A stretch of DNA of 64,000 nt from Nitrospirae bacterium JdFR-86 (GCA_002011815.1 MTOV01000015.1:1405-65404); one strand, 5' to 3'. Counted from the stretch's first letter, positions 3,149 through 54,609 are shown. Numbers and translations: made by a program. Notes: a model not told the origin generated them from the sequence alone.

Positions 3149-3919
3149 ATGGAAAAGGGAAAAAGGATACTGGTACTGGATGACGACCCTGTTGTGGGTC
3201 TAAGCTGCAAGCGGATACTCGGTGCCGAAGGCTATGTCGTATCAGCGGTAGCCAAAGGGGAAGATGCGATTAAGAGACTTTCAAACGAAGAGATTGATTT
3301 ACTTATCTCAGACATAAGGCTGCCTGACATATACGGCATAGAGGTGCTGAGAGAGGCAAGGCAGATACAACCCAAGACTGATGTCGTTATCATTACGGGT
3401 TACCCCACGCTGGAGGATGCAAAAGAAGCGATTCGGCTGGGTGCATTCGAGTATCTGGAGAAGCCTTTTACTCCTGAGTTTATGATAAACGTAGCGAACA
3501 GGGTTTTCGACAAGAGAGGATGGATACTGAGAAAGGCGTTTATAGACCAGTTCAAGCAGTACATAACTCCAATGTCAGAGCTGGATGAAAAGACCATATT
3601 CTACAAGGAAGGGACATGGGCAAGACCTCTAAGAGACGGCAGATGGGAGATAGGCTTTGATGTAAGGCACTGGTTCCTTGGAGGACAGTTGCTTTATGTG
3701 GATATAATTGATGCACCTACGATAACTTCGGGTCAGTCTTTTGCAAGGCTTCTCAGTGGAGACGGCAGAATACAGGAGTTGAAATCACCGATGACCGGAG
3801 TGGTGGATGAAAAGAACGAAAAGGTGAACGAAACGGTATGCTCGCTGGCAACGGAATGTCTTTCCGAAGGCTGGCTGATGTGGCTTCTGAGGGTAAAGCC
3901 TGTTTCTTCAGCTGAGTGA
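3149..3919 (+). CDS. response-regulator receiver domain fused to a GcvH-like (glycine-cleavage H fold) domain
   Basis: REC motifs are present (LVLDDD, LLISDIRLPD, LEKPF). The C-terminal half aligns by eye to the GcvH pattern (YKEGTWA..., KSPMTGVVDEKNEKV, SEGWLMWL). Confidence 0.65.
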   Translation: MEKGKRILVLDDDPVVGLSCKRILGAEGYVVSAVAKGEDAIKRLSNEEIDLLISDIRLPDIYGIEVLREARQIQPKTDVVIITGYPTLEDAKEAIRLGAFEYLEKPFTPEFMINVANRVFDKRGWILRKAFIDQFKQYITPMSELDEKTIFYKEGTWARPLRDGRWEIGFDVRHWFLGGQLLYVDIIDAPTITSGQSFARLLSGDGRIQELKSPMTGVVDEKNEKVNETVCSLATECLSEGWLMWLLRVKPVSSAE

Positions 3920-6116: not shown

Positions 6117-6991
6117 AAGGTAATGTCCTTGTTGTTGATGATGAACAGATAGTACTTACAAGTTGCGAGAGGATTCTTGAGCCAGAGGGGTATGATGTAG
6201 ATACTGCCATCTCTGCAAAAGCTGCTCTCGCAATGCTTCAGGAAAAACCCTATGACCTTGTTATCACAGACATCAAGATGCCTGAGATGGACGGTCTGGA
6301 GTTTATCAGGCAGATAAGGGCGAAAGACCCTGATATGAATGTCGTTCTGATTACAGGTTATCCCTCGCAGGAAAGCATTAAAGAAGCCCTGAGCTTAAGA
6401 ATAATAGATTATCTGCCCAAACCGTTTTCTCCTGCGCTTCTTACCGAGGTAACCCACAAGGCAGTGGAGTTCAAAAAGAAGGGTGTTTCTCCAGAGCCTG
6501 CAGTCGAGGACTATACAGAGGAAGTAGCAGCAAAGCTCGATGAGATTATAAATCGTTACAAGGACAAGCCCGGCAGTCTTATACCTGTGCTTCAGGAGGC
6601 GCAGGAACTCGTTGGTTATCTGCCGCCGGTTGTTCAAAGGCACATTGCACGGGGACTTAACCTTTCTGTAAGTGAAGTTCATGGTGTGGTTTCATTCTAT
6701 TCGTTCTTTACGATGAAGCCTAAGGGCAAGCACAACATCAGGGTGTGTCTTGGAACTGCGTGCTATGTTAAGAGGGCAGAGGAAATACTCCAGAAGCTCA
6801 AGGAGATACTTAAGATAGATATAGGTGAGGTTACGCCTGACAGGACGTTTTCGCTTGAGAGTGTCCGTTGTCTTGGAGCTTGTGGTCTTGCGCCTGTGGT
6901 CGTTGTGGACAAGGACACCTATGGCGCTGTAAATCCAGTAAAGACTGCCGAGATCCTCGAAAACTACAACGGCAAGAAGAAGGAGGGTTAA
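6113..6991 (+). CDS. receiver domain fused to a NuoE/HndA-type [2Fe-2S] thioredoxin-like ferredoxin
   Basis: N-terminal REC (VVDDE, VITDIKMPEMDG, LPKPF). C-terminal NuoE motifs (SLIPVLQEAQ, CLGTAC, CLGACGLAP). Confidence 0.8.
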   Translation: MKGNVLVVDDEQIVLTSCERILEPEGYDVDTAISAKAALAMLQEKPYDLVITDIKMPEMDGLEFIRQIRAKDPDMNVVLITGYPSQESIKEALSLRIIDYLPKPFSPALLTEVTHKAVEFKKKGVSPEPAVEDYTEEVAAKLDEIINRYKDKPGSLIPVLQEAQELVGYLPPVVQRHIARGLNLSVSEVHGVVSFYSFFTMKPKGKHNIRVCLGTACYVKRAEEILQKLKEILKIDIGEVTPDRTFSLESVRCLGACGLAPVVVVDKDTYGAVNPVKTAEILENYNGKKKEG

Positions 6992-7375
6992 ATGCCAAGG
7001 CTGACAGTAGATGATTTAAAGAAGATAAAGGAACAATATAAGTCTACTCTTACTCTCAGGGAAGGCGGTTACAGGGCAAAGATAACCGTGCACATGGGCA
7101 CCTGCGGAATTGCAGCAGGTGCAAGGGATGTAATGGATGCACTGCTTGATGAAATGGCAGCAAGTGATACAAAGGATGTTATCGTTACCACCTCAGGATG
7201 TGCAGGGCTTTGCAGCCGTGAGCCGATGGCTACTGTCGAGATAATCAACGAAGCACCGGTTAAGTATTGTTATCTCGACCCTGAGAAAATCAAAAAGATA
7301 TTTAAAGAGCATGTACAGGGAGGCAAGGTAGTCGAGGAGTATGCACTGGTTGTGGGAAGCGAAACGTCTTATTAA
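6992..7375 (+). CDS. HndB-like small [2Fe-2S] ferredoxin
   Basis: About 127 aa with MGTCGIAAGA...SGCAGLCSREP, the thioredoxin-like 2Fe-2S pattern. Confidence 0.7.
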   Translation: MPRLTVDDLKKIKEQYKSTLTLREGGYRAKITVHMGTCGIAAGARDVMDALLDEMAASDTKDVIVTTSGCAGLCSREPMATVEIINEAPVKYCYLDPEKIKKIFKEHVQGGKVVEEYALVVGSETSY

Positions 7376-7416
7376 GAGAAATTAAATAATTTGTAATAAA
7401 TGGAGGAAGGCTGACT

Positions 7417-9258
7417 ATGGAGAAATACCGTGCAAATTTGATGGTATGCGGCGGCACAGGCTGTATAGCAGGCGGGGGACTTAAGATAAAGGATGCACTG
7501 GTTGAGGAGATTAAAAAGAGAGGGCTGGAAAACGAAGTCAATGTAGTGCTTACCGGCTGTAACGGCTTTTGCGCAGAAGGACCTATAATGACCGTTTATC
7601 CCGACGGCGTATTCTACGAAAAGCTCAAGGTGGAGGACATCCCCCTGCTCGTTGAAGAGCACCTGCTTAAAGGCAGGCCTGTCGAGAAACTGATGTATAA
7701 AGAGCCGGAGAAGAAGCATGCAGTGCCTGTGATGAAGGACATACCGTTCTTCAGCCTTCAGGTTTTAAGGGCATTGAGAAACAAGGGTATGATAGACCCT
7801 GAAAAGATAGAGGAGTATATAGCAAGGGACGGCTATCAGGCAGCAGCAAAGGCATTGACCGAGATGACGCCTGAGGAGATAATCAGCACGGTAAAGGCGT
7901 CAGGGCTTCGTGGAAGAGGCGGTGCAGGCTTCCTTACCGGACTTAAATGGGAGTTCTGTTCAAAGGTTACTGCTGACCAGAAATACATACTGTGTAACGG
8001 AGACGAGGGAGACCCTGGTGCGTTCATGGACAGAAGCATAATGGAGGCAGACCCGCATGTGGTTCTTGAAGGCATGATAATAGCGGCAAAAGCCATTGGC
8101 GCATCAAAAGGCTATATATATGTGAGGGCGGAGTATCCGCTTGCAGTAAGAAGGCTTCAGCTTGCCATAGACCAGGCAAAGGAATACGGACTGCTCGGTG
8201 AAGACATCCTGGGCACAGGGTTTAACTTGGACATAGAGATATATCAGGGTGCAGGCGCTTTCGTCTGCGGAGAGGAGACCGCTCTTATGCGTTCCCTCGA
8301 AGGAAAGCGTGGAATGCCGATACCAAGACCTCCGTTCCCTGTGCATAAAGGACTCTGGGCAAAGCCTTCGGTGCTTAACAATGTCGAGACGTTTGCAAAC
8401 ATCCCGCCGATAATCCTCCACGGTGCGGACTGGTACAGAAGCCTCGGCACGGAAAAGTCCACAGGCACAAAGGTCTTTGCGCTTACAGGTGCGGTAAACA
8501 ACATCGGTCTTATAGAAGTGCCGATGGGTATTCCTCTTAGAAAGATAATCTTTGACATAGGCGGTGGAATAAAGAAAGGCAGGAAGTTTAAGGCAGTTCA
8601 GCTTGGAGGTCCTTCAGGCGGATGTATTCCTGAAGAGTTGCTCGACACACCGGTTACATATGAAGACATAGTCAAGACCGGTGCGATTGTCGGCTCAGGC
8701 GGAATGGTTGTTATGGATGACCTGAACTGCATGGTCTCTGTTGCCAAGTTCTTCCTTGAGTTTACAGCTGATGAGTCCTGCGGGAAGTGCCCGCCGTGCA
8801 GAATCGGCACGAGGGTGATGCTCGATATGCTTACGGATATTACAGAGGGACGGGGCAAGCCCGGTGATGTAGAGCTTCTTCAGGACTTGGCACAGGACAT
8901 TATAAACACATCTCTTTGCGGTCTCGGGCAGACCGCACCGAACCCTGTGCTTACCACTATCAAGTATTTTGCCGATGAGTATGAATCTCATATAAAGGAC
9001 GGCTGGTGCAAGGCAGGGGTTTGCAGAGACCTTGTCACCTTCTACATAGATGCAGAGACGTGTAAAGGCTGTGGTGCATGCATGAGGGTTTGTCCTGCAG
9101 GAGCGATTACAGGCGAGAAGAAGAAACCGCATCACATCAATCAGGAGCTTTGCATAAAGTGTCGTTCATGTTTTGAAAGATGCAAGTTTGACTCTGTAAA
9201 GACAGGTCCAGCGAGCATGCGAGAAGAACTCTTGAAGAAACAGCCTGTTGAGGCATAG
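7417..9258 (+). CDS. NuoF/HndC-type NAD(P)H-binding flavoprotein subunit with extra Fe-S domains
   Basis: N-terminal 2Fe-2S-like domain (CGGTGC...CNGFC). GRGGAGF and GDEGDPGAF (FMN/NADH) motifs. ESCGKCPPCR N3 cluster. C-terminal 2x[4Fe-4S] (CKGCGAC..C, CIKCRSC..C). Confidence 0.9.
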   Translation: MEKYRANLMVCGGTGCIAGGGLKIKDALVEEIKKRGLENEVNVVLTGCNGFCAEGPIMTVYPDGVFYEKLKVEDIPLLVEEHLLKGRPVEKLMYKEPEKKHAVPVMKDIPFFSLQVLRALRNKGMIDPEKIEEYIARDGYQAAAKALTEMTPEEIISTVKASGLRGRGGAGFLTGLKWEFCSKVTADQKYILCNGDEGDPGAFMDRSIMEADPHVVLEGMIIAAKAIGASKGYIYVRAEYPLAVRRLQLAIDQAKEYGLLGEDILGTGFNLDIEIYQGAGAFVCGEETALMRSLEGKRGMPIPRPPFPVHKGLWAKPSVLNNVETFANIPPIILHGADWYRSLGTEKSTGTKVFALTGAVNNIGLIEVPMGIPLRKIIFDIGGGIKKGRKFKAVQLGGPSGGCIPEELLDTPVTYEDIVKTGAIVGSGGMVVMDDLNCMVSVAKFFLEFTADESCGKCPPCRIGTRVMLDMLTDITEGRGKPGDVELLQDLAQDIINTSLCGLGQTAPNPVLTTIKYFADEYESHIKDGWCKAGVCRDLVTFYIDAETCKGCGACMRVCPAGAITGEKKKPHHINQELCIKCRSCFERCKFDSVKTGPASMREELLKKQPVEA

Positions 9259-13468: not shown

Positions 13469-14848
13469 ATGGCTGGTGAAGCAAGTACTCAAAAGTCGAG
13501 TCTGAGAAACAACCTTATGGTGTTCTTCTTCCTGATTATCATAATTTGGGGGATTCTCATTACTGAGTTTTTCCAGTATGTGCTTCAGGAAACATTGAGT
13601 GGTACTGGACTTGACGAGGCAGTCATAAAGAAAATCACCGTTAATTTTACGACCCTGAGCACAGGCGTTACGATTGCCGGCACTCTGATAGTGTTGGTTA
13701 TTGCCTTACTTCTTTCAAAGACCATTACGGATCCGATTAAGAAATTAATTGACGGAGTGGCGGAGGTGGCCAAAGGCAATTTCAGCACAAGGATAGAGGT
13801 GACCAGTCAGGATGAGTTGGGTCAGCTTGCCAGAGGGTTCAACCATATGACTAATCAGCTTGAAGAGTTGCTCTACAGAATAGAAGCGGCAAAAAAATAC
13901 ACAGACAATATAGTGACGACAATACCCTCGATTCTTATAGTTCTGGACAGCAGGATGAATGTTCTTTCCACTAACATGGACTCTGACAAACTCAAGAATG
14001 GGACACCATCTATTGGACTTCTGCAATTTGTAGAACCGCTTAAAGATGAGATAAAGGCATGCCTTGAAACAGGAGAGATACAAAACAAGGAGATAGCCCT
14101 TAATACAGAAGGTGCTGAAACGCCTTTGGTTTTCTCTGCAGCGGTTTCTCAAATAGAGCTTGAAGAGGAGATAGGTGTGCTTCTTACAATCACTGATATT
14201 ACCGAACAGAAGCTGGCACAGGAACGTATAAAAGCATCGCTTAAAGAAAAGGAGGTGCTTCTTAAGGAGGTTCATCACAGGGTCAAGAACAATCTGCAGG
14301 TTATTTCAAGTCTCTTGAGTCTTCAGGCAGGCTATGTAAATGACAAGCAGGCGCTTGAGCTGTTTAAGGAGAGCCAGAACCGCGTAAGGTCAATGGCAAT
14401 TATCCATGAAAGGCTTTATCAGTCAAAGGATCTTGGGAGGATAGACTTTCGGGGTTATGTCCGGGATCTGGCAGACAACTTATTCCGCTCATACGGTGTG
14501 GATTCTGGACGTATTATGTTGAATGTGAATGTTGACAATGTTTTTCTTGGAGTGGACATGGCAATTCCCTGCGGGTTGATTGTCAACGAGCTGGTCTCTA
14601 ATTCTTTAAAATATGCTTTTCCAGAAGGAAGAAAGGGGGAAATTCGCATTGATCTCTTTCCAGAAGGAGAGAAAAATCTTGTGTTGATTGTCAAGGACAA
14701 TGGGATTGGTTTTCCAGAAGAGCTTGACTTCAGAAACACAGAGACATTGGGTTTACAGTTGGTGAATACCTTGACTGAGCAGGTAGGCGGCACGATTACT
14801 CTTAGTAGAGAAGGCGGAACAATGTTCAAGATTGTTCTGCCCAATTGA
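13469..14848 (+). CDS. sensor histidine kinase (HAMP + PAS-like + HisKA_2/HWE-type + HATPase_c)
   Basis: Two TM segments, HAMP (ITDPIKKLIDG...DELGQLARGFNHM), H-box EVHHRVKNNLQVISSLL, and ATPase boxes NELVSNSLKYAF, DNGIGF, GLQLV. Confidence 0.85.
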   Translation: MAGEASTQKSSLRNNLMVFFFLIIIIWGILITEFFQYVLQETLSGTGLDEAVIKKITVNFTTLSTGVTIAGTLIVLVIALLLSKTITDPIKKLIDGVAEVAKGNFSTRIEVTSQDELGQLARGFNHMTNQLEELLYRIEAAKKYTDNIVTTIPSILIVLDSRMNVLSTNMDSDKLKNGTPSIGLLQFVEPLKDEIKACLETGEIQNKEIALNTEGAETPLVFSAAVSQIELEEEIGVLLTITDITEQKLAQERIKASLKEKEVLLKEVHHRVKNNLQVISSLLSLQAGYVNDKQALELFKESQNRVRSMAIIHERLYQSKDLGRIDFRGYVRDLADNLFRSYGVDSGRIMLNVNVDNVFLGVDMAIPCGLIVNELVSNSLKYAFPEGRKGEIRIDLFPEGEKNLVLIVKDNGIGFPEELDFRNTETLGLQLVNTLTEQVGGTITLSREGGTMFKIVLPN

Positions 14849-48707: not shown

Positions 48708-49589
48708 ATGGACATACATCAACTGAAGATATTTGTATCTGTCTTTAAGAATAAGAGCTTTTCAAAGGCATCTGAACAACTGCACCTTACACAGCCTACT
48801 GTAAGCGAACATATCAGGACACTTGAAGAGGAGCTTGACCTGAAACTCTTTGACAGGGCAGGAAGACTGGTAATCCCTACAAAAGAAGCCGAACTCCTTT
48901 ATCCCCGCGCCATGGAGATAATCGAGAAGGTCAAGGATATGAAGTCGGCTGTGGGAAGGTTTAAAGAGCAGGTAAGCGGGGAGCTGGTTATCGGGGCAAG
49001 CACCATCCCAGGCACATATATTATTCCGTCTCTGGCATCTAAATTCAAAAGAAAATATCCGGAGGTCTCCTTTCATGTAGTGATAGGTGACTCGAAAAGG
49101 ATAACCGAGATGGTCTTGAATCACGAGATACTTCTTGGCATTGTCGGTGCGAAGATGGACAAAGGCAGGGTGGAGTATGTTCCATTCGTAGAAGACGAGC
49201 TTGTGCTTGCCGCACTTCCGGGGCTTATTGCCAAGACAGTGATTGCTCCCGGAGAACTTGCCGGTATTCCGTTTTTGCTGAGGGAGGAAGGCTCTGGCAC
49301 AAGAAAGACAATGGAAAAACATCTCTCTGAAAAAGGAATCAGCCTTGATAATATGAATGTGGTCGCCGTTTTAGGCTCGACGGATTCTATAAAAGAGGCG
49401 GTTAAGTCAGGGCTTGGGGCTTCAATCCTGTCGAGACTTGCCATAAGGGAAGAACTGAAAGAAGGCAGGTTGAAAGAAATCAGAATAAGAGGGCTCAGCA
49501 TGAAAAGGAGCTTTTATATCATCACGCATAAAAGACGCACACTCCCGAAACAGTATCAGGCCTTTTTTGAATACCTGAAAAAGAAATAG
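48708..49589 (+). CDS. LysR-family transcriptional regulator
   Basis: N-terminal wHTH (FSKASEQLHLTQPTVSEHIRTLE) and a LysR substrate-binding domain. Confidence 0.9.
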   Translation: MDIHQLKIFVSVFKNKSFSKASEQLHLTQPTVSEHIRTLEEELDLKLFDRAGRLVIPTKEAELLYPRAMEIIEKVKDMKSAVGRFKEQVSGELVIGASTIPGTYIIPSLASKFKRKYPEVSFHVVIGDSKRITEMVLNHEILLGIVGAKMDKGRVEYVPFVEDELVLAALPGLIAKTVIAPGELAGIPFLLREEGSGTRKTMEKHLSEKGISLDNMNVVAVLGSTDSIKEAVKSGLGASILSRLAIREELKEGRLKEIRIRGLSMKRSFYIITHKRRTLPKQYQAFFEYLKKK

Positions 49590-49689
49590 ATTTTTCCTAT
49601 ATATTTCATTCATTTTATCAATATTAACTATTGGACTTGTTCTGGGGAGCTTGCCTAAAATTTTTTGATAAGTCTTTTGTTTTGAGCAA

Positions 49690-49784
49690 GAGGGGCATGG
49701 GGCTGGTGCCCCACCTGGTCTGCAAAACCAGGGGCAGGGTTGAGAGTCAGCCCTGGTGGGTTCGATTCCCACTGCCCTTCTCCA
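49690..49784 (+). tRNA. atypical tRNA with tRNA-Sec-like architecture, anticodon GCA and discriminator U
   Basis: Hand fold. 8-bp acceptor GAGGGGCA/TGCCCTTC. D arm TGGGGC-TGGT-GCCCCA. 6-bp anticodon stem CCTGGT/ACCAGG with loop CTGCAAA. 23-nt variable region forming about 9 bp. T arm GTGGG-TTCGATT-CCCAC, then T-CCA. Confidence 0.75.
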
Positions 49785-49813
49785 AGGAACAGTCAGTTTA
49801 AAAGAAGAGGTTG

Positions 49814-51751
49814 ATGCCGCATAAAAAGGTATTGTTTATTACCCCGTCCTACCATTGCGGGGTTGTGGAAGTAGCCGGTCATTGGATTCCCCTTCAATTC
49901 GTCTATCTTGGCGGCGCTGTCAGGGAAGCAGGTTTTGAGCCGATTGTTTACGATGCCATGACAAAGCGGCATAGCCTTGAGACAATAGCAAAAAAGATTG
50001 CAGATGTAAATCCGGATTATGTCGCTACCACGGCAATCACCGCAACAGTGCTTGATGCGCTGGAGGTTCTAAGGGTTGCAAAGGAGATAAATCCGGATAT
50101 CATCACCATTATTGGAGGGGTGCATCCTACTTTTCTTTATGACGAGGTTCTTGAGAACAAATATGTTGATTATGTTGTAAGAGGAGAGGGGGAGGAGACC
50201 ATTAAAGAGCTGCTTTTAGCTCTGGAAGGAGGCAGGGGACTTGACCGTGTAAGGGGGATAGCATACAGGAGCGGACGGCAGGTTATAACCACGTCAGCAA
50301 GGCCTTTTATTCAGGACTTGGACGGGCTTTCTCCTGCGTGGGACTTAATCGACTGGAAGGATTACAGGTATTTCGTCATACCCCGCAGCCGGCTTGGAGC
50401 GGTAAGCACCTCAAGAGGCTGCAGTCATAACTGCGCCTTTTGTTCACAGCAGAAGTTCTGGCATCAGTCGTGGCGGGGAAGGCAGCCAGAAAGTGTGGTT
50501 AAAGAGCTGGAACATTTAACCAGGACTTACGGGGTCAATGTCTTTTTAATCCCTGATGAGCATCCTACACAGGACAGGGAGCGGTGGGAAAGACTTCTTG
50601 ACCTGCTTATAGAAAGGGACTTGGGCATATATCTCCTGATGGAGACAAGGGCGGAAGACATCGTAAGGGACAGGGATATCCTGTACAAGTATAGGAAGGC
50701 AGGGGTTGTCCATATCTACATAGGGGTTGAGGCGACAAGGCAGGAGACGCTTGACCTTATAAAAAAAGACATGAAGGTGGAGACCGGAGCAGAGGCAATA
50801 AGGCTTATTCACGAGCACGGTATGATTACCGAGACGAGCTTTATCTTAGGCTTTCCGGACGAGACGAAAAAATCGATAAGAAACACCCTCAGGCTTTCCA
50901 AGTTTTACAATCCGGATTTCGCACATTTTCTTGCACTGGCTCCATGGCCCTATGCCGATATGTTCAAAGAGCTTGAACCTTATATCGCAGTAAGAGATTA
51001 CAGGAAATACAATCTTATCGAGCCTGTCATCAAGCCTGAAAAGATGAGTATCAAGGCTGTGGACAAGGCAATCATTGACTGCTACCAGAGCTTTTACATG
51101 AGCAAGCTCAAAGAGATACTGTCAATGGAGGATGCCTTTAAGAGAGGCTATCTGCTACGTTCCATGAAATTGATAATGAGCAGCTCGTTTATTGTAGACA
51201 AACTTGGCTCGCTCGGCAGGATTCCGCCTCAGGTCAACGCACTGCTTAATAAGCTGGAGAAGGAGAAAGTGGCGGATGAAGGCGTGCCGCAGGACTCGAT
51301 GTCAGAAGTATCAAGGTCTGTAAAGATCAATGCACCCTTGGGAAAAGTTTTTGAATATGTTGTAAACCCTTTAAACTGGCCCAGTTATGTTATGAGCCTC
51401 GTAAGCGTGAAGAACCTCTCCAACAAGGTTCCTGTATCAGGCACTACGTTTGAGTGGACATACAGAATGCTCGGCCTGAATCTAAAAGGCAAGGGCAGGG
51501 TGCTTGAATACGAAAAGGACAAAAAGTTTGCAGTAAAGATGCATGGTGCATTTCCAATAATAGAGACGTTTCTGTTTGAAGGAGACTCTAAGGCAACAAG
51601 ATTGACCATTAAAATCAACTATGAAGTTCCCGGCAAGGTGCTTGGTGTTTTAGCTGACAAACTTCTCATAGAGAAGATAAATGCGAAAGAGGCAGAGACC
51701 GTGCTTAAAAAAATAAAGATGATTTGTGAAAGCGAAAGTGCTACCATGTAA
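49814..51751 (+). CDS. B12-binding-domain radical SAM enzyme fused to a C-terminal SRPBCC (START/polyketide-cyclase-like) domain
   Basis: N-terminal cobalamin-binding-like Rossmann region. CSHNCAFC (CxxxCxxC) radical SAM cluster. The C-terminal about 150 aa (VSRSVKINAPLGKVFEYVVNPLNWPSY...) is SRPBCC-like. Confidence 0.75.
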   Translation: MPHKKVLFITPSYHCGVVEVAGHWIPLQFVYLGGAVREAGFEPIVYDAMTKRHSLETIAKKIADVNPDYVATTAITATVLDALEVLRVAKEINPDIITIIGGVHPTFLYDEVLENKYVDYVVRGEGEETIKELLLALEGGRGLDRVRGIAYRSGRQVITTSARPFIQDLDGLSPAWDLIDWKDYRYFVIPRSRLGAVSTSRGCSHNCAFCSQQKFWHQSWRGRQPESVVKELEHLTRTYGVNVFLIPDEHPTQDRERWERLLDLLIERDLGIYLLMETRAEDIVRDRDILYKYRKAGVVHIYIGVEATRQETLDLIKKDMKVETGAEAIRLIHEHGMITETSFILGFPDETKKSIRNTLRLSKFYNPDFAHFLALAPWPYADMFKELEPYIAVRDYRKYNLIEPVIKPEKMSIKAVDKAIIDCYQSFYMSKLKEILSMEDAFKRGYLLRSMKLIMSSSFIVDKLGSLGRIPPQVNALLNKLEKEKVADEGVPQDSMSEVSRSVKINAPLGKVFEYVVNPLNWPSYVMSLVSVKNLSNKVPVSGTTFEWTYRMLGLNLKGKGRVLEYEKDKKFAVKMHGAFPIIETFLFEGDSKATRLTIKINYEVPGKVLGVLADKLLIEKINAKEAETVLKKIKMICESESATM

Positions 51752-51777
51752 ACCGAAAACCGTCATGGAGGTGGAAC

Positions 51778-52404
51778 GTGGAGCCGAAAAACCTGGATGT
51801 AAGAGGGCTTAAGTGTCCTGAGCCTCTAAAGAGGACTCAGGAGGAACTGGAATCAATAAAAGAAGGCGTTTTAGTTGTTCTTGCCGAAAGTCCTGCAAAT
51901 TTGAGCATAGAGAGGTTTTCAAGGAAGTCAGGGTTTAGGATCGAAAGCACCAAGCGCGAGGGCTACCACGAGCTTAAGATAATAAAGACTCCTCACAGCA
52001 AGCCGAAAAAAGAAGGCATCCTGCAGAGGCTTATGCGGTTTGTGAAGAGAAACAAACAGGTTGAGGGGTTGAATGATACGATGGTTGTGGTCTCAACGAA
52101 TGTGTTTGGAAGACACGAGGACATAGGCAGGGTGCTCATGAAAGGGTTTTTTGAGACGATGAAGGTTATGGGTGACATACCGGCTGTCATGTTTTTCATG
52201 AACTCAGGGGTTTTGCTTACTACAACGGATGAGGAGATAATTCCCCTGCTTAAAGAATTTGAGTCCGAGGGCGTGGAGATATACTCCTGCAGCACCTGTC
52301 TTAAGCACTTTAATCTTGAGGAAAGTCTAAAGGTCGGACAGGCAGGAGGCATGGCAGTGCTTACCGACGGAATGAGAACATATAAGAAAATTGTAACTAT
52401 ATAA
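51778..52404 (+). CDS. yedF: YedF-type selenium-metabolism protein (TusA/SirA-like N-domain + DsrE-like C-domain), copy 1
   Basis: GTG start after GGAGGTGG. The motif is GLKCPEP (CPxP) and the C-terminal motif is YSCSTCLKHF. Confidence 0.7.
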   Translation: MEPKNLDVRGLKCPEPLKRTQEELESIKEGVLVVLAESPANLSIERFSRKSGFRIESTKREGYHELKIIKTPHSKPKKEGILQRLMRFVKRNKQVEGLNDTMVVVSTNVFGRHEDIGRVLMKGFFETMKVMGDIPAVMFFMNSGVLLTTTDEEIIPLLKEFESEGVEIYSCSTCLKHFNLEESLKVGQAGGMAVLTDGMRTYKKIVTI

Positions 52405-52418
52405 GAGGTGTTGTTCTG

Positions 52419-53003
52419 ATGGTTATTGATGCACGGGGTCAGGCGTGCCCCAAGCCTGTGATGATGGCTGAAGAGGCGGTCTCTAAAATCGGAGAGGGCA
52501 TAGTCGAAGTACTCGTTGACAACGAAGCCTCGGTCAAAAACCTTTCGAGATTTGCAAAAAACAATGCCCTGTATGCAGAGACCGAAAAGGTAGATGACTA
52601 CTGGAAAGTCAAGATTGTCAAAGGCTATCCCTGCGAGATTGCAGAGGAAGAAGAAAAACCGTTGGTGGACAAAGGGGTTTTTCTTATCATCGGCACTGAT
52701 GTGATGGGCAAGGACGAAGACATCGGAAGGGTGCTCATGAAAGGCTTCTTTGAGACCATGAAGGTGACAAAGGAACTGCCGCAGTCCATATTCTTTTTGA
52801 ACAAAGGAGTGATGCTGACTACAACAGACACCGAAATTATTCCTGTACTCAAGGAGCTTGAGTACATGGGTGTTGAGATATACTCCTGCGGCACGTGTCT
52901 TAAGCACTACGGGCTTGAATCAGAGCTTAAAGTAGGCCACCGGGGCACGACAAATCACATAATTGAAGGGCTGAAAGAGTTTAAAAAGGTCGTATGGATT
53001 TAA
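52419..53003 (+). CDS. yedF: YedF-type selenium-metabolism protein, copy 2
   Basis: ARGQACPKPV (CPxP), GRVLMKGFFETMKV identical to copy 1, and YSCGTCLKHY. Confidence 0.75.
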   Translation: MVIDARGQACPKPVMMAEEAVSKIGEGIVEVLVDNEASVKNLSRFAKNNALYAETEKVDDYWKVKIVKGYPCEIAEEEEKPLVDKGVFLIIGTDVMGKDEDIGRVLMKGFFETMKVTKELPQSIFFLNKGVMLTTTDTEIIPVLKELEYMGVEIYSCGTCLKHYGLESELKVGHRGTTNHIIEGLKEFKKVVWI

Positions 53004-53120
53004 GGGCATATCCTGAAATCTGAAGCTTGTACCCTGCGGGATCCTCTCCGGCTTTTTCTGCATTAATAATTCTGGTATGTTAAAATGTATAAAAATTTTT
53101 TGTAAAGGAAGGTATCGGCT

Positions 53121-53906
53121 ATGTTTAACATGAAGGTAGTTCAACCCACGAGGCTTGACCCTGACACAAGGTTCAAGTTCAGATGTCATAAAGCGATTAA
53201 ATGTTTTACGCGTTGCTGCAGCAACATAGATATAATGCTTACGCCTTATGATGTCTTGAGGATGAAGAACAGGCTGGGGATTACATCAGAGGAGTTTCTT
53301 GACAAATACACAATAATGCGCATTGACCAGAAGTCTTCGCATCCTTATGCCTATCTCAGGATGGGGGATGATGCAGAGCGGAGGTGTCCGTTTGTCGTTG
53401 TGCCTGACGGCTGCACTATCTATTCTGACCGCCCTGTAAGCTGCAGATACTATCCGATAGGACAGGCTACTTTAAAGAAGCGTGAGAAAGGGGGCATTGT
53501 TCACGAAGAGTTTTATTTTTTTATAAGGGAAGAGCACTGCCTTGGCTATCAGGAAGACACAGAGTGGACCATAGAGTCATGGAGGGACGACCAGGGTGCA
53601 TTGCACTATGATGAGATGAACAGAGAGTGGAAAGAGCTTTTGATGAGGAGAAACCTTCCGGGACAGCCTGAGCTTGACCCGAAGAAGCAGACCCAGTTCT
53701 TCATGGCAAGCTATGACCTTGACCGGTTCAGAAGGTATATATTTGAAAGCAGGTTTCTTGAGTTGTTCGAGGTTGACGAGGATGAAGTCGAGAAGATGAG
53801 GCAGGATGAAGTCGCACTTATGAAGTTCGGGTTTAAGTATCTGAAGTATCTTATGATGATGGAGCAGACGCTGAAGCTGAAGGACGGGGTGCTGCCTAAG
53901 CAGTAA
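53121..53906 (+). CDS. YkgJ/UPF0153-type cysteine-cluster (CxxCxxCC) protein
   Basis: FRCHKAIKCFTRCC motif plus CPF...DGCTIY...RPVSCRYYP. Confidence 0.65.
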   Translation: MFNMKVVQPTRLDPDTRFKFRCHKAIKCFTRCCSNIDIMLTPYDVLRMKNRLGITSEEFLDKYTIMRIDQKSSHPYAYLRMGDDAERRCPFVVVPDGCTIYSDRPVSCRYYPIGQATLKKREKGGIVHEEFYFFIREEHCLGYQEDTEWTIESWRDDQGALHYDEMNREWKELLMRRNLPGQPELDPKKQTQFFMASYDLDRFRRYIFESRFLELFEVDEDEVEKMRQDEVALMKFGFKYLKYLMMMEQTLKLKDGVLPKQ

Positions 53907-54255
53907 TATCTAACTGGCTTTTAAGCCATTTCTCCAGTTCTTCGTCAATTGGATACATGTCCGCAATGGGTTTGACACCTTCTTTTTTGACCGCATTCAG
54001 GAGCAACTCCTGTGGAACGTCAACGATTTCGCCTATGGTTTTACTTGTCAGGTTGTAGGTTTTCATCACCATAAGGCTGGCGGTGTCATCTACATAGTCT
54101 ATATAGAACATGAAGCCCTGTGTTTCCTTTATGAGGTCGCGGTCTTTTTCAGAGTGCACAAATCTTGGTTTAAAGAGGTCTTGGGGAGTTACGTCCCACC
54201 TCAGGTGCTTCATAAAGACTTTGTTTTTCTTAAGCCTTGAGAGTTTGAGACGCAT
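53896..54255 (-). CDS. hypothetical protein
   Basis: 119-aa ORF with host-like composition, translationally close to the upstream 54262-54609 ORF. I recognised no motif. Confidence 0.4.
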   Translation of the reverse strand: MRLKLSRLKKNKVFMKHLRWDVTPQDLFKPRFVHSEKDRDLIKETQGFMFYIDYVDDTASLMVMKTYNLTSKTIGEIVDVPQELLLNAVKKEGVKPIADMYPIDEELEKWLKSQLDITA

Positions 54256-54261
54256 TTCTTC

Positions 54262-54609
54262 TTAAGCGTTTCCTATCTTACCGAGTGAAGATTTATATGC
54301 CTCGATTGCACTTTGCTCAACATCTTTCAGCATCTCCTCTTTTGCCCTTTCCAGCCGTTTTAGCGGCAGTCTCAGGGTTCTGGCCACTTTTTCCAGTGGT
54401 TTTTTCTCGCTGAAGTGCATCTCTGCAATCAAGACTTTCAATGCGTCATCGAGGATTGAATTTCTCAGCACCTCGTCTTCTATATCAATAAGTGCTGCTG
54501 CCTGCTCAAAAGAAAGCGACTGTTTAACCGCATTTCTAATCTTATTAACAGACTCTTCGTAAAGTTTGTCCTCTTCCGAGGCGGCTTCATCATACCATGG
54601 TTTTTCCAT
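54262..54609 (-). CDS. hypothetical acidic helical protein
   Basis: 115-aa ORF, predicted all-helical. Separated from atpE by a strong terminator. Confidence 0.4.
   Translation of the reverse strand: MEKPWYDEAASEEDKLYEESVNKIRNAVKQSLSFEQAAALIDIEDEVLRNSILDDALKVLIAEMHFSEKKPLEKVARTLRLPLKRLERAKEEMLKDVEQSAIEAYKSSLGKIGNA

Follow-up and report, generated by a model that had tools for sequence, protein, structure and literature searches.

A candidate selenium-status locus with a tRNAReC-type tRNACys, YedF genes and a radical SAM/SRPBCC fusion in a Nitrospirota bacterium

Why should the gene for a tRNA that has the body of a selenocysteine (Sec) tRNA and the anticodon of a cysteine tRNA lie directly between a LysR-type regulator and the genes for a radical S-adenosylmethionine (rSAM) enzyme and two YedF-type proteins? 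This question is raised by a stretch of 64,000 nucleotides (nt) from Nitrospirae bacterium JdFR-86 (GCA_002011815.1, MTOV01000015.1:1405-65404), in the following called the window, with positions counted from its first letter. Between 48708 and 53906 six elements follow each other on the + strand: the LysR regulator, the tRNA, a fusion of a B12-binding rSAM enzyme with an SRPBCC domain, the two YedF proteins (YedF1 and YedF2) and a YkgJ-type cysteine-cluster protein (CxxCxxCC protein). An earlier sequence-only reading had listed these six and proposed that they form a co-regulated selenium or persulfide system, possibly acting on the tRNA itself, and all of them could be confirmed in place and on this strand. 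The explanation that we favour, with a probability of about 65%, is that the locus is one selenium-status regulon unit of a Thermodesulfovibrionales-type (Nitrospirota) bacterium, in which a tRNA recoding Sec as cysteine (Cys) would be co-expressed with selenium/sulfur (Se/S) carriers. The CxxCxxCC gene is outside this proposed unit. Judged by its gene families, the locus belongs with the known selenium-utilisation gene clusters and tRNAReC loci and not to a new tRNA-centred pathway.

The regulator, the tRNA and the YedF proteins

The first gene (48708-49589) encodes a protein with the LysR domains PF00126 and PF03466, which reaches 326 bits against NF040786, the model for the 'selenium metabolism-associated LysR' (LysR_Se; cutoff 250). 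Its neighbourhood is also that of a selenium gene, as it adjoins the tRNA and YedF here and selD in one of the related loci (L075; loci of relatives are given as L numbers). Using homologues of 56-70% identity to look up contig contexts, and counting homologues of 46-70% identity, LysR genes were found beside the same class of tRNA in L027, L028, L029, L038, L040, L057, L061, L063 and L075. In PMC5322559 and PMC9312934, LysR_Se is described as the bacterial counterpart of the archaeal HrsM, the controller of Sec/Cys isoenzyme expression in Methanococcus. For HrsM, selenophosphate has been proposed as effector.

The tRNA gene (49690-49784, + strand, 95 nt) matches Rfam RF01852 with 66.7 bits at a gathering threshold of 47, and ARAGORN calls it tRNA-Cys(GCA). 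Its architecture is that of a tRNASec, with an 8-bp acceptor stem (G1:C72 to A8:U65), a 5-bp T stem, a 6-bp anticodon stem, a long variable arm, and a D arm whose 6-bp stem is closed by U9:A24 and carries a 4-nt loop. The identity set is that of a tRNACys, namely the anticodon GCA and the discriminator base U73, and the CCA is encoded (3' end ...CCCTTC-T-CCA). A metagenome scan with a pattern of the anticodon arm and T arm yielded 43 further tRNA loci with 37 distinct tRNA sequences, of which 36 have GCA, U73 and CCA in common and 27 retain the 8-bp acceptor stem. Acceptor and D stems show compensatory changes, as seen from the covariation across 23 homologues.

This combination defines the selC* tRNACys class of Mukai et al. 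2017 (PMC5389517), which was later named tRNAReC, and the window tRNA shares its design of a Sec-like body with anticodon GCA and U73. A paper from 2026 (PMC13582414) recognises tRNAReC by three features, as it is at least 80 nt long, has GCA or UCA as anticodon and carries U as discriminator, and the window tRNA has all three. According to Vargas-Rodriguez 2018, as summarised in PMC11415595 and PMC13582414, EF-Tu does not use the GCA form; SelB delivers it instead, and UGA together with a selenocysteine insertion sequence (SECIS) is decoded by it as Cys. What is known of charging with Cys, binding by SelB and decoding comes from E. coli in which other tRNAs of this class were expressed (PMC5389517, PMC11415595 and PMC13582414). 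By its sequence features the window tRNA is therefore a known selC*/tRNAReC-type tRNACys and not a new class, and the suggestion of a dedicated, so far undescribed tRNA has to be given up, since the class is published and has a demonstrated decoding activity. Two deviating copies were also noticed: a 5'-truncated one in L030 (~1960-2065) with only 4 of the 8 acceptor pairs, and one in L034/L035 with an aberrant D arm and the 3' end TTCA instead of TCCA. These may be decaying tRNAReC genes.

YedF1 (51778-52404) and YedF2 (52419-53003), both ~200 aa long and on the + strand, reach 157 and 204 bits against TIGR03527 (cutoff 110) and have the two-domain organisation with CPxP and CGxC motifs. YedF2 carries CPKP and CGTC and is the conserved YedF orthologue of the module, since it shares 59-70% identity with the YedF located behind the tRNA or the operator in L027, L028, L029, L040, L046, L067, L076 and L077. 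YedF1, 42% identical to YedF2, is a divergent paralogue with CPEP in its TusA-like domain and a CSTC variant in its DsrE-like domain, both cysteines being kept, and its counterpart in L077 is 53% identical. A sequence search of the PDB with YedF returned the TusA-like domain only. The two proteins are probably carriers or redox proteins for Se/S in the form of perselenide or persulfide, as suggested by their domains and motifs. YedF has been tied to SelD, and LysR_Se is among its listed partners (Lin et al. 2015, PMC5322559). As for the co-occurrence with SelD, there is no selD in the 64-kb window, and a gene for the YedF C-terminal domain lies near selD in L075.

The window resembles the selD/yedF/yedE neighbourhoods of Lin et al. 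2015 (PMC5322559; TIGR03527) in having a YedF with TusA-like and DsrE-like domains and the CPxP and CGxC motifs. Other YedF partners of PMC5322559 are likewise found around this tRNA class, namely LysR_Se, SelD, transglutaminase-like proteins and the 2-hydroxyacyl-CoA-dehydratase-like (double-cubane) proteins with their activase. It differs in the tandem divergent YedF copies, in the presence of a tRNA gene and a class-B rSAM in the same predicted operon, and in the lack of yedE and selD within 64 kb. The selenium link that had been claimed from the sequence is thus borne out by the LysR_Se model, by both YedF proteins and by the Sec-mimicking class of the tRNA, and the proposed family assignments (TIGR03527, PF04055, PF02310 and PF03692) all lie above the cutoffs of their models.

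A recurrent operator/promoter and the proposed unit

Between the regulator gene and the tRNA, conservation among relatives predicts an operator/promoter at 49597-49661 on the + strand. It consists of CTATA (49597-49601), TTCATTC (49605-49611) and a LysR-type box, ATCAATATTAACTAT (49617-49631), which is followed by a -35-like TGGACT (49632-49637), a spacer of 18 nt and a -10-like TAAAAT (49656-49661). In other lineages the pattern ATAG-N7-CTAT makes the box, ATAGATAWTATCTAT, a perfect LysR-type dyad; the version of the window, beside the -35 element, is ATCAATATTAACTAT. The call of the promoter in the window rests on this conservation and not on a promoter scan.

The 13-mer AACTATTGGACTT was found as an exact match in six lineages and always upstream of a gene of the module, compared to ~0.02 exact matches expected in the 1.33 Mb searched. 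Of 39 distinct loci, 11 have the 15-nt box ATNNATANTANCTAT within the 300 nt that precede their tRNA, compared to 0.2 loci expected at a background rate of 0.005 per 300 nt. When the ~95-nt region was turned into an nhmmer profile, it matched only such sites across ~0.7 Mb and gave no match at the rSAM loci L001-L023 save L015. A second match to the operator in the window, at 14007, has 2 mismatches and lies inside an open reading frame (ORF), and was treated as chance. The same architecture of ~70 nt stands before the tRNA in the window, L027 and L063, before rSAM-YedF-YedF in L077, before rSAM-YedF in L027 (as a second copy) and L015, before YedF alone in L076, before a transglutaminase-like gene in L029 and L034, and before selD in L075. 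As this motif recurs before homologous genes in other lineages, the arrangement exceeds what is expected by chance. LysR_Se would be the protein that binds the dyad box.

The gene orders around the tRNA in relatives give the same picture. In L027 the LysR gene is followed by the Sec-like tRNA(GCA), a 100-aa ORF, a split-Soret-cytochrome-like gene, the rSAM/SRPBCC fusion and YedF; in L028 by the tRNA, a transglutaminase-core protein and YedF; in L029 by a transglutaminase-like gene, the tRNA (starting 4 nt past the stop codon) and YedF; and in L040 by the tRNA, a small protein called C11 here and YedF. In L075 a gene for the YedF C-domain comes first, then the tRNA (opposite strand), LysR and selD. 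This selD (6925-7975, - strand) scores 284 bits against TIGR00476, encodes Sec as seen from an in-frame TGA at codon 17 within the motif GCG-U-AAK, lies convergent to LysR_Se and has an operator/promoter of the window architecture upstream. Besides L075, selD is found beside the tRNA in L065. Altogether, LysR_Se, YedF or a transglutaminase-like gene occurs near tRNAReC in ~10 distinct lineages. A double-cubane reductase (together with its activase), an ArsM-ArsS '(seleno)protein' fusion and C11 also recur beside the tRNA, and Lin et al. 2015 (PMC5322559) had already named several such families as partners of YedF/LysR_Se. Neither the rSAM fusion nor the CxxCxxCC gene is present in any of the 43 metagenomic tRNAReC loci. 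The conserved core is LysR_Se, the ~70-nt operator/promoter and tRNAReC and/or YedF, and it is found on at least four chromosomal backbones.

A different arrangement is seen in 14 of the 43 metagenomic loci (L032, L039, L041, L042, L045, L047, L049, L051, L055, L056, L058, L065, L071 and L072), in which the tRNA is followed at a distance of 14-44 nt by the start of a selB paralogue (the copy of L056 scores 355 bits against TIGR00475). Simple ORF calling at these loci runs across the tRNA gene and on into selB. Mukai et al. (PMC5389517) described such an arrangement for selB*, from which the window and ~10 related lineages differ, as they have no selB* downstream and instead LysR_Se upstream and YedF downstream of the tRNA, and in the window also the B12 rSAM fusion. 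The selB-linked tRNAReC form a sequence subgroup apart from the tRNAs linked to LysR/YedF. No mention of a conserved LysR-type operator before tRNAReC was found in the literature as far as its text was accessible; the supplement of Mukai 2017 and Vargas-Rodriguez 2018 stood outside this comparison, and a LysR/YedF context may have been described there earlier.

From LysR to the CxxCxxCC gene the consecutive elements are separated by 100, 26-29, 26, 14 and 117 nt. A terminator scan of the + strand, from the tRNA through to the last codon of the CxxCxxCC gene, detected no terminator-like site in the intergenic regions, and the sole match on this strand, at 50420, lies inside the rSAM ORF. Together with the LysR-type operator/promoter that recurs in relatives, the tight spacing and the missing terminator make the co-regulation proposed from the sequence very probable. 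Most likely the operator abutting the sigma-70-like promoter would give rise to a single transcript with tRNAReC first, followed by rSAM/SRPBCC and the two YedF (gaps of 26, 26 and 14 nt), from which RNase P and 3' processing would free the tRNA. LysR_Se would bind the box and either drive or repress this tRNA-led transcript. By analogy with the published class, cysteinyl-tRNA synthetase would charge the tRNA with Cys, the Sec-like 13-bp acceptor/T helix would direct it to SelB and not to EF-Tu, and UGA with a SECIS would be read as Cys. The control of the tRNA by LysR_Se could then match the insertion of Sec or Cys to the selenium supply, while the YedF proteins would handle Se/S and the rSAM enzyme, as our best guess, would act with YedF on a hydrophobic, possibly tetrapyrrole-like small molecule.

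Parallels for parts of this model exist. As described in PMC5322559 and PMC9312934, HrsM of Methanococcus is likewise a regulator of the LysR_Se family tied to Se- or Cys-dependent enzyme forms. It switches between separate Sec- and Cys-encoding genes, whereas the regulated element here would be a tRNA that re-reads the same UGA codon. tRNA genes within mRNA operons are also known, one case being a selC that abuts selB/selA or is nested there (Mukai 2021, PMC8124441), where a tRNA of the Sec system is transcribed together with close ORFs as well; the window differs from this case by a Cys-charged mimic as tRNA and by YedF and rSAM as partners instead of SelA/SelB.

Several observations weigh against the proposed selenium-status unit. 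The link between the operator and LysR_Se is correlative, and the promoter scan counted no more sigma-70-like sites than in shuffled sequence. Neither selB nor selD (by tblastn) nor a canonical tRNA-Sec(UCA) is present within the 64-kb window, and the Sec machinery of this genome is assumed from relatives. Parts of the module also exist on their own, as L077 has the operator with rSAM-YedF-YedF and no adjacent LysR or tRNA, and L076 has LysR, operator and YedF but no tRNA, so that the rest of the module can evidently do without this gene. Finally, ~20 rSAM orthologues with 60-75% identity are located elsewhere with no tRNA, YedF, LysR or operator nearby, and no residues were found that set the YedF-linked rSAMs apart from the other orthologues.

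Of the new elements, we consider most useful the conserved operator, which connects LysR_Se to tRNAReC, YedF, selD and, in some lineages, the B12 radical SAM/SRPBCC fusion. tRNAReC can put Cys in the place of Sec at UGA; how the work is partitioned between it and tRNASec "remains unclear" according to the 2026 paper (PMC13582414). The operator raises the hypothesis that the meaning of UGA at selenoprotein sites is tuned transcriptionally to the selenium supply, and with it the physiological role of tRNAReC becomes approachable by experiment. The candidate LysR_Se binding motif could also be used for mapping selenium regulons in Nitrospirota.

Two of the recurrent tRNA neighbours deserve a description of their own. 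C11 is a protein of 107-182 aa with no Pfam or NCBIfam match, whose gene lies directly 3' of tRNAReC in six loci. It was located in L040 (743-1291), in L034, L035, L038, L054, L057 and L067 (31-52 nt after the tRNA) and, divergently oriented, in L058; in L040 and L067 it stands between the tRNA and YedF and in L058 after a copy of the operator. The second is a fusion of an ArsM-like methyltransferase with an ArsS 'radical SAM (seleno)protein' (TIGR04167, 345 bits), found near tRNAReC in L034 (12179-14248 in tRNA-oriented coordinates), L032, L064 and L066, which has a CC pair where related families have UU. From the position of this fusion it follows that known selenoprotein families cluster around this tRNA.

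The radical SAM/SRPBCC fusion

The gene behind the tRNA (49814-51751 on the + strand with ATG as the likely start, or from a TTG at 49811) encodes a protein of 645 or 646 aa with a B12-binding domain (PF02310, 94.7 bits), a Radical_SAM domain (PF04055, 87.7 bits) and a C-terminal Polyketide_cyc2/SRPBCC domain (PF10604), all above cutoff. With the first two domains it qualifies as a class-B (cobalamin-dependent) rSAM enzyme, and its CX3CX2C motif (Cys203/207/210) is invariant in 19 of 19 orthologues. It resembles BchE, the anaerobic Mg-protoporphyrin IX monomethyl ester cyclase, in the N-terminal B12-binding domain, the CX3CX2C core and a nearly full-length match to TIGR02026 (positions 2-468 of 497). 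The score of 447 bits is below the cutoff of 481 and the SRPBCC domain is additional, and we therefore regard the protein as BchE-like and not as BchE. A sequence search of the PDB found distant class-B rSAMs only, with weak matches to TokK, OxsB, TsrM and AprD4.

Orthologues with 53-75% identity were found at 23 loci, one genome being scanned per species, and stem mostly from metagenome-assembled genomes (MAGs) of Nitrospirota/Thermodesulfovibrionales. At none of these 23 species-level loci does a Sec-like tRNA, a LysR or a CxxCxxCC gene adjoin the rSAM gene, and YedF does so in L015 only, which led us to reject a conserved five-gene operon. Three lineages, which represent two backbones, have the rSAM gene behind this operator (the window, L077 with a 75% identical rSAM, and L027/L015), and in L027 and L077 the stop of rSAM and the start of YedF overlap by 11 nt. 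In an unbootstrapped neighbour-joining tree the window copy and the L015/L027 copies are not sisters, which suggests that the YedF-linked rSAMs do not form a clade. Judged by gene context, the fusion is a recurrent accessory member of the predicted regulon and is coupled to YedF.

These same observations bring up another explanation, in which rSAM and YedF, controlled by LysR_Se, would act as a pair in the synthesis or repair of a hydrophobic metabolite or cofactor that depends on S or Se, with the tRNA doing no more than sharing their promoter. We regard this as a tentative but real possibility, which overlaps with the selenium-status unit and is not exclusive of it. It would explain why the two genes are adjacent behind one operator in all three lineages and overlap in two, and why L027 has a second operator copy dedicated to them. 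The SRPBCC domain and the similarity to BchE point to a lipophilic or tetrapyrrole-like ligand, in line with the usual neighbours of the gene elsewhere (CcsA/ResB-like, FtrD-like and a second B12-rSAM) and with the split-Soret cytochrome-like gene preceding it in L027. However, most orthologues, from ~20 species, lack YedF, LysR and the operator in their vicinity and show no residue differences from the linked copies, and the idea names no substrate. To our knowledge, no class-B rSAM with a TusA/DsrE-type donor has been described, which also counts against it. The locus draws attention to an uncharacterised B12 radical SAM/SRPBCC family that has repeatedly been recruited beside YedF. A more far-reaching version, in which the operator defines a selenium-starvation regulon and the fusion uses YedF-delivered Se/S on a lipophilic (tetrapyrrole-like) substrate, switched on together with the UGA Sec-to-Cys tRNA, appears rather unlikely to us; if true, it would represent a new kind of chalcogen-dependent class-B radical SAM chemistry.

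Could the enzymes act on the tRNA next to them? The sequence-only reading had considered this, and it would mean that rSAM, YedF and the CxxCxxCC protein modify a nucleoside or convert the tRNA-bound Cys to Sec or a persulfide. The 3' end of the tRNA is only 26-29 nt away from the rSAM start codon and both are probably co-transcribed, and TusA-type proteins relay sulfur for tRNA thiolation in other systems. Nevertheless, L077 has the operator and rSAM-YedF-YedF-CxxC with no tRNA, none of the 43 metagenomic tRNAReC loci has an rSAM or CxxCxxCC gene, none of the 23 genomic rSAM loci has an adjacent tRNA, and the CxxCxxCC gene is part of the chromosomal backbone described below. The enzyme itself is BchE-like with a small-molecule-binding SRPBCC domain, and its scores against the tRNA-modifying rSAM families MiaB, MtaB, RimO and MnmL are 25-31 bits at cutoffs of 180-357. 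As the L077 operon lacks the tRNA, most tRNAReC loci lack the rSAM and the rSAM resembles small-molecule class-B enzymes, a modification of the tRNA is disfavoured and, in our opinion, most improbable; with ~20 orthologues in unrelated contexts, we see no support for it.

Outside the selenium locus (L001-L023; for example L002 264-3587, L003 1273-4790 and L019/L020), the rSAM orthologues usually follow the genes for a membrane protein (130 aa, no Pfam match) and for a second, ~440-aa B12-rSAM, and genes for CcsA (PF01578), a ResB-like protein, an FtrD-like protein (PF10080) and an FtsX-type ABC transporter are located nearby. Such neighbours may connect the enzyme with heme or cytochrome c maturation or with iron. 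Three orthologues from Bacillota (L019-L021) have no SRPBCC domain, and L022 has a separate SRPBCC gene (3387-3824, - strand) that shares 61% identity with the C-terminal domain of the fusion; the fusion is therefore lineage-specific. In two related MAGs a canonical tRNA-Sec(UCA) lies ~2.1 kb downstream of the rSAM orthologue (L012 8271-8368 and L013 8823-8920, - strand). This was treated as coincidence, and the gene of 678-705 aa beside rSAM is not selB.

The CxxCxxCC gene and the chromosomal backbone

The last of the six elements (53121-53906, + strand) matches PF03692 with 36.5 bits (cutoff 23) and thus falls into this family. The protein is 65-87% identical across many Nitrospirota, where its homologues carry the NCBI name 'YkgJ family cysteine cluster protein', and it gave no match in a sequence search of the PDB. 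It belongs to a backbone that the window shares with L073, L076 and L077 and that reads GspD, LarC, a variable region, CxxCxxCC, a DVU0772-family gene, a hypothetical gene, AtpE, AtpB, PrmC and RF-1. Between LarC and CxxCxxCC the window has LysR, tRNA, rSAM, YedF1 and YedF2, L073 only LysR, L076 LysR and YedF, and L077 rSAM and two YedF with neither LysR nor tRNA. No remnants of the tRNA were detected in L076 and L077 and none of LysR in L077, the alignment scores being within the range of shuffled sequences.

As the position of the CxxCxxCC gene is constant whatever lies upstream of it in L073, L076 and L077, the gene is a backbone neighbour and the LarC-CxxCxxCC interval is prone to insertions and deletions. 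The gene was not found at any of 46 other tRNAReC loci, no operator box precedes it, and it has a -10-like element of its own. It is thus probably not part of the module, in contrast to what had been proposed from the sequence, since in relatives it adjoins LysR where tRNA, rSAM and YedF are absent. The expectation that tRNA-rSAM-yedF-yedF-ykgJ is a conserved unit did not hold either: the partial order rSAM-YedF-YedF-CxxC recurs in L077, and the full order of six elements came to light in this organism alone, in JGI contig Ga0314848_000010 and, as an identical locus, in two Logan assemblies.

One might conclude from this that unrelated genes simply lie side by side in a compact genome and share neither regulation nor function. 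An indel-prone region with four variants on the same backbone (the window, L073, L076 and L077), an rSAM gene that is mostly located elsewhere and a simple promoter scan no better than chance would all agree with such a fortuitous juxtaposition. It does not explain why a specific operator recurs before each component on independent backbones and why LysR_Se, tRNAReC and YedF are linked repeatedly, all three families being independently tied to selenium in the literature (PMC5322559, PMC5389517), and we consider it very unlikely.

On the upstream side of the variable region, the LarC gene (nickel-pincer cofactor insertion; TIGR00299 and NF052512; 47522-48703) ends 4 nt before the start codon of LysR_Se, and this adjacency is kept in L073 and L076. 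On the other side, the DVU0772-family gene (NF045682, 52 bits; 53896-54609, - strand) converges on the CxxCxxCC gene with an overlap of 11 nt at its 3' end. Next to it lies a gene for 115 aa with no family match, and both genes occupy the same position upstream of atpE/atpB in L073, L076 and L077.

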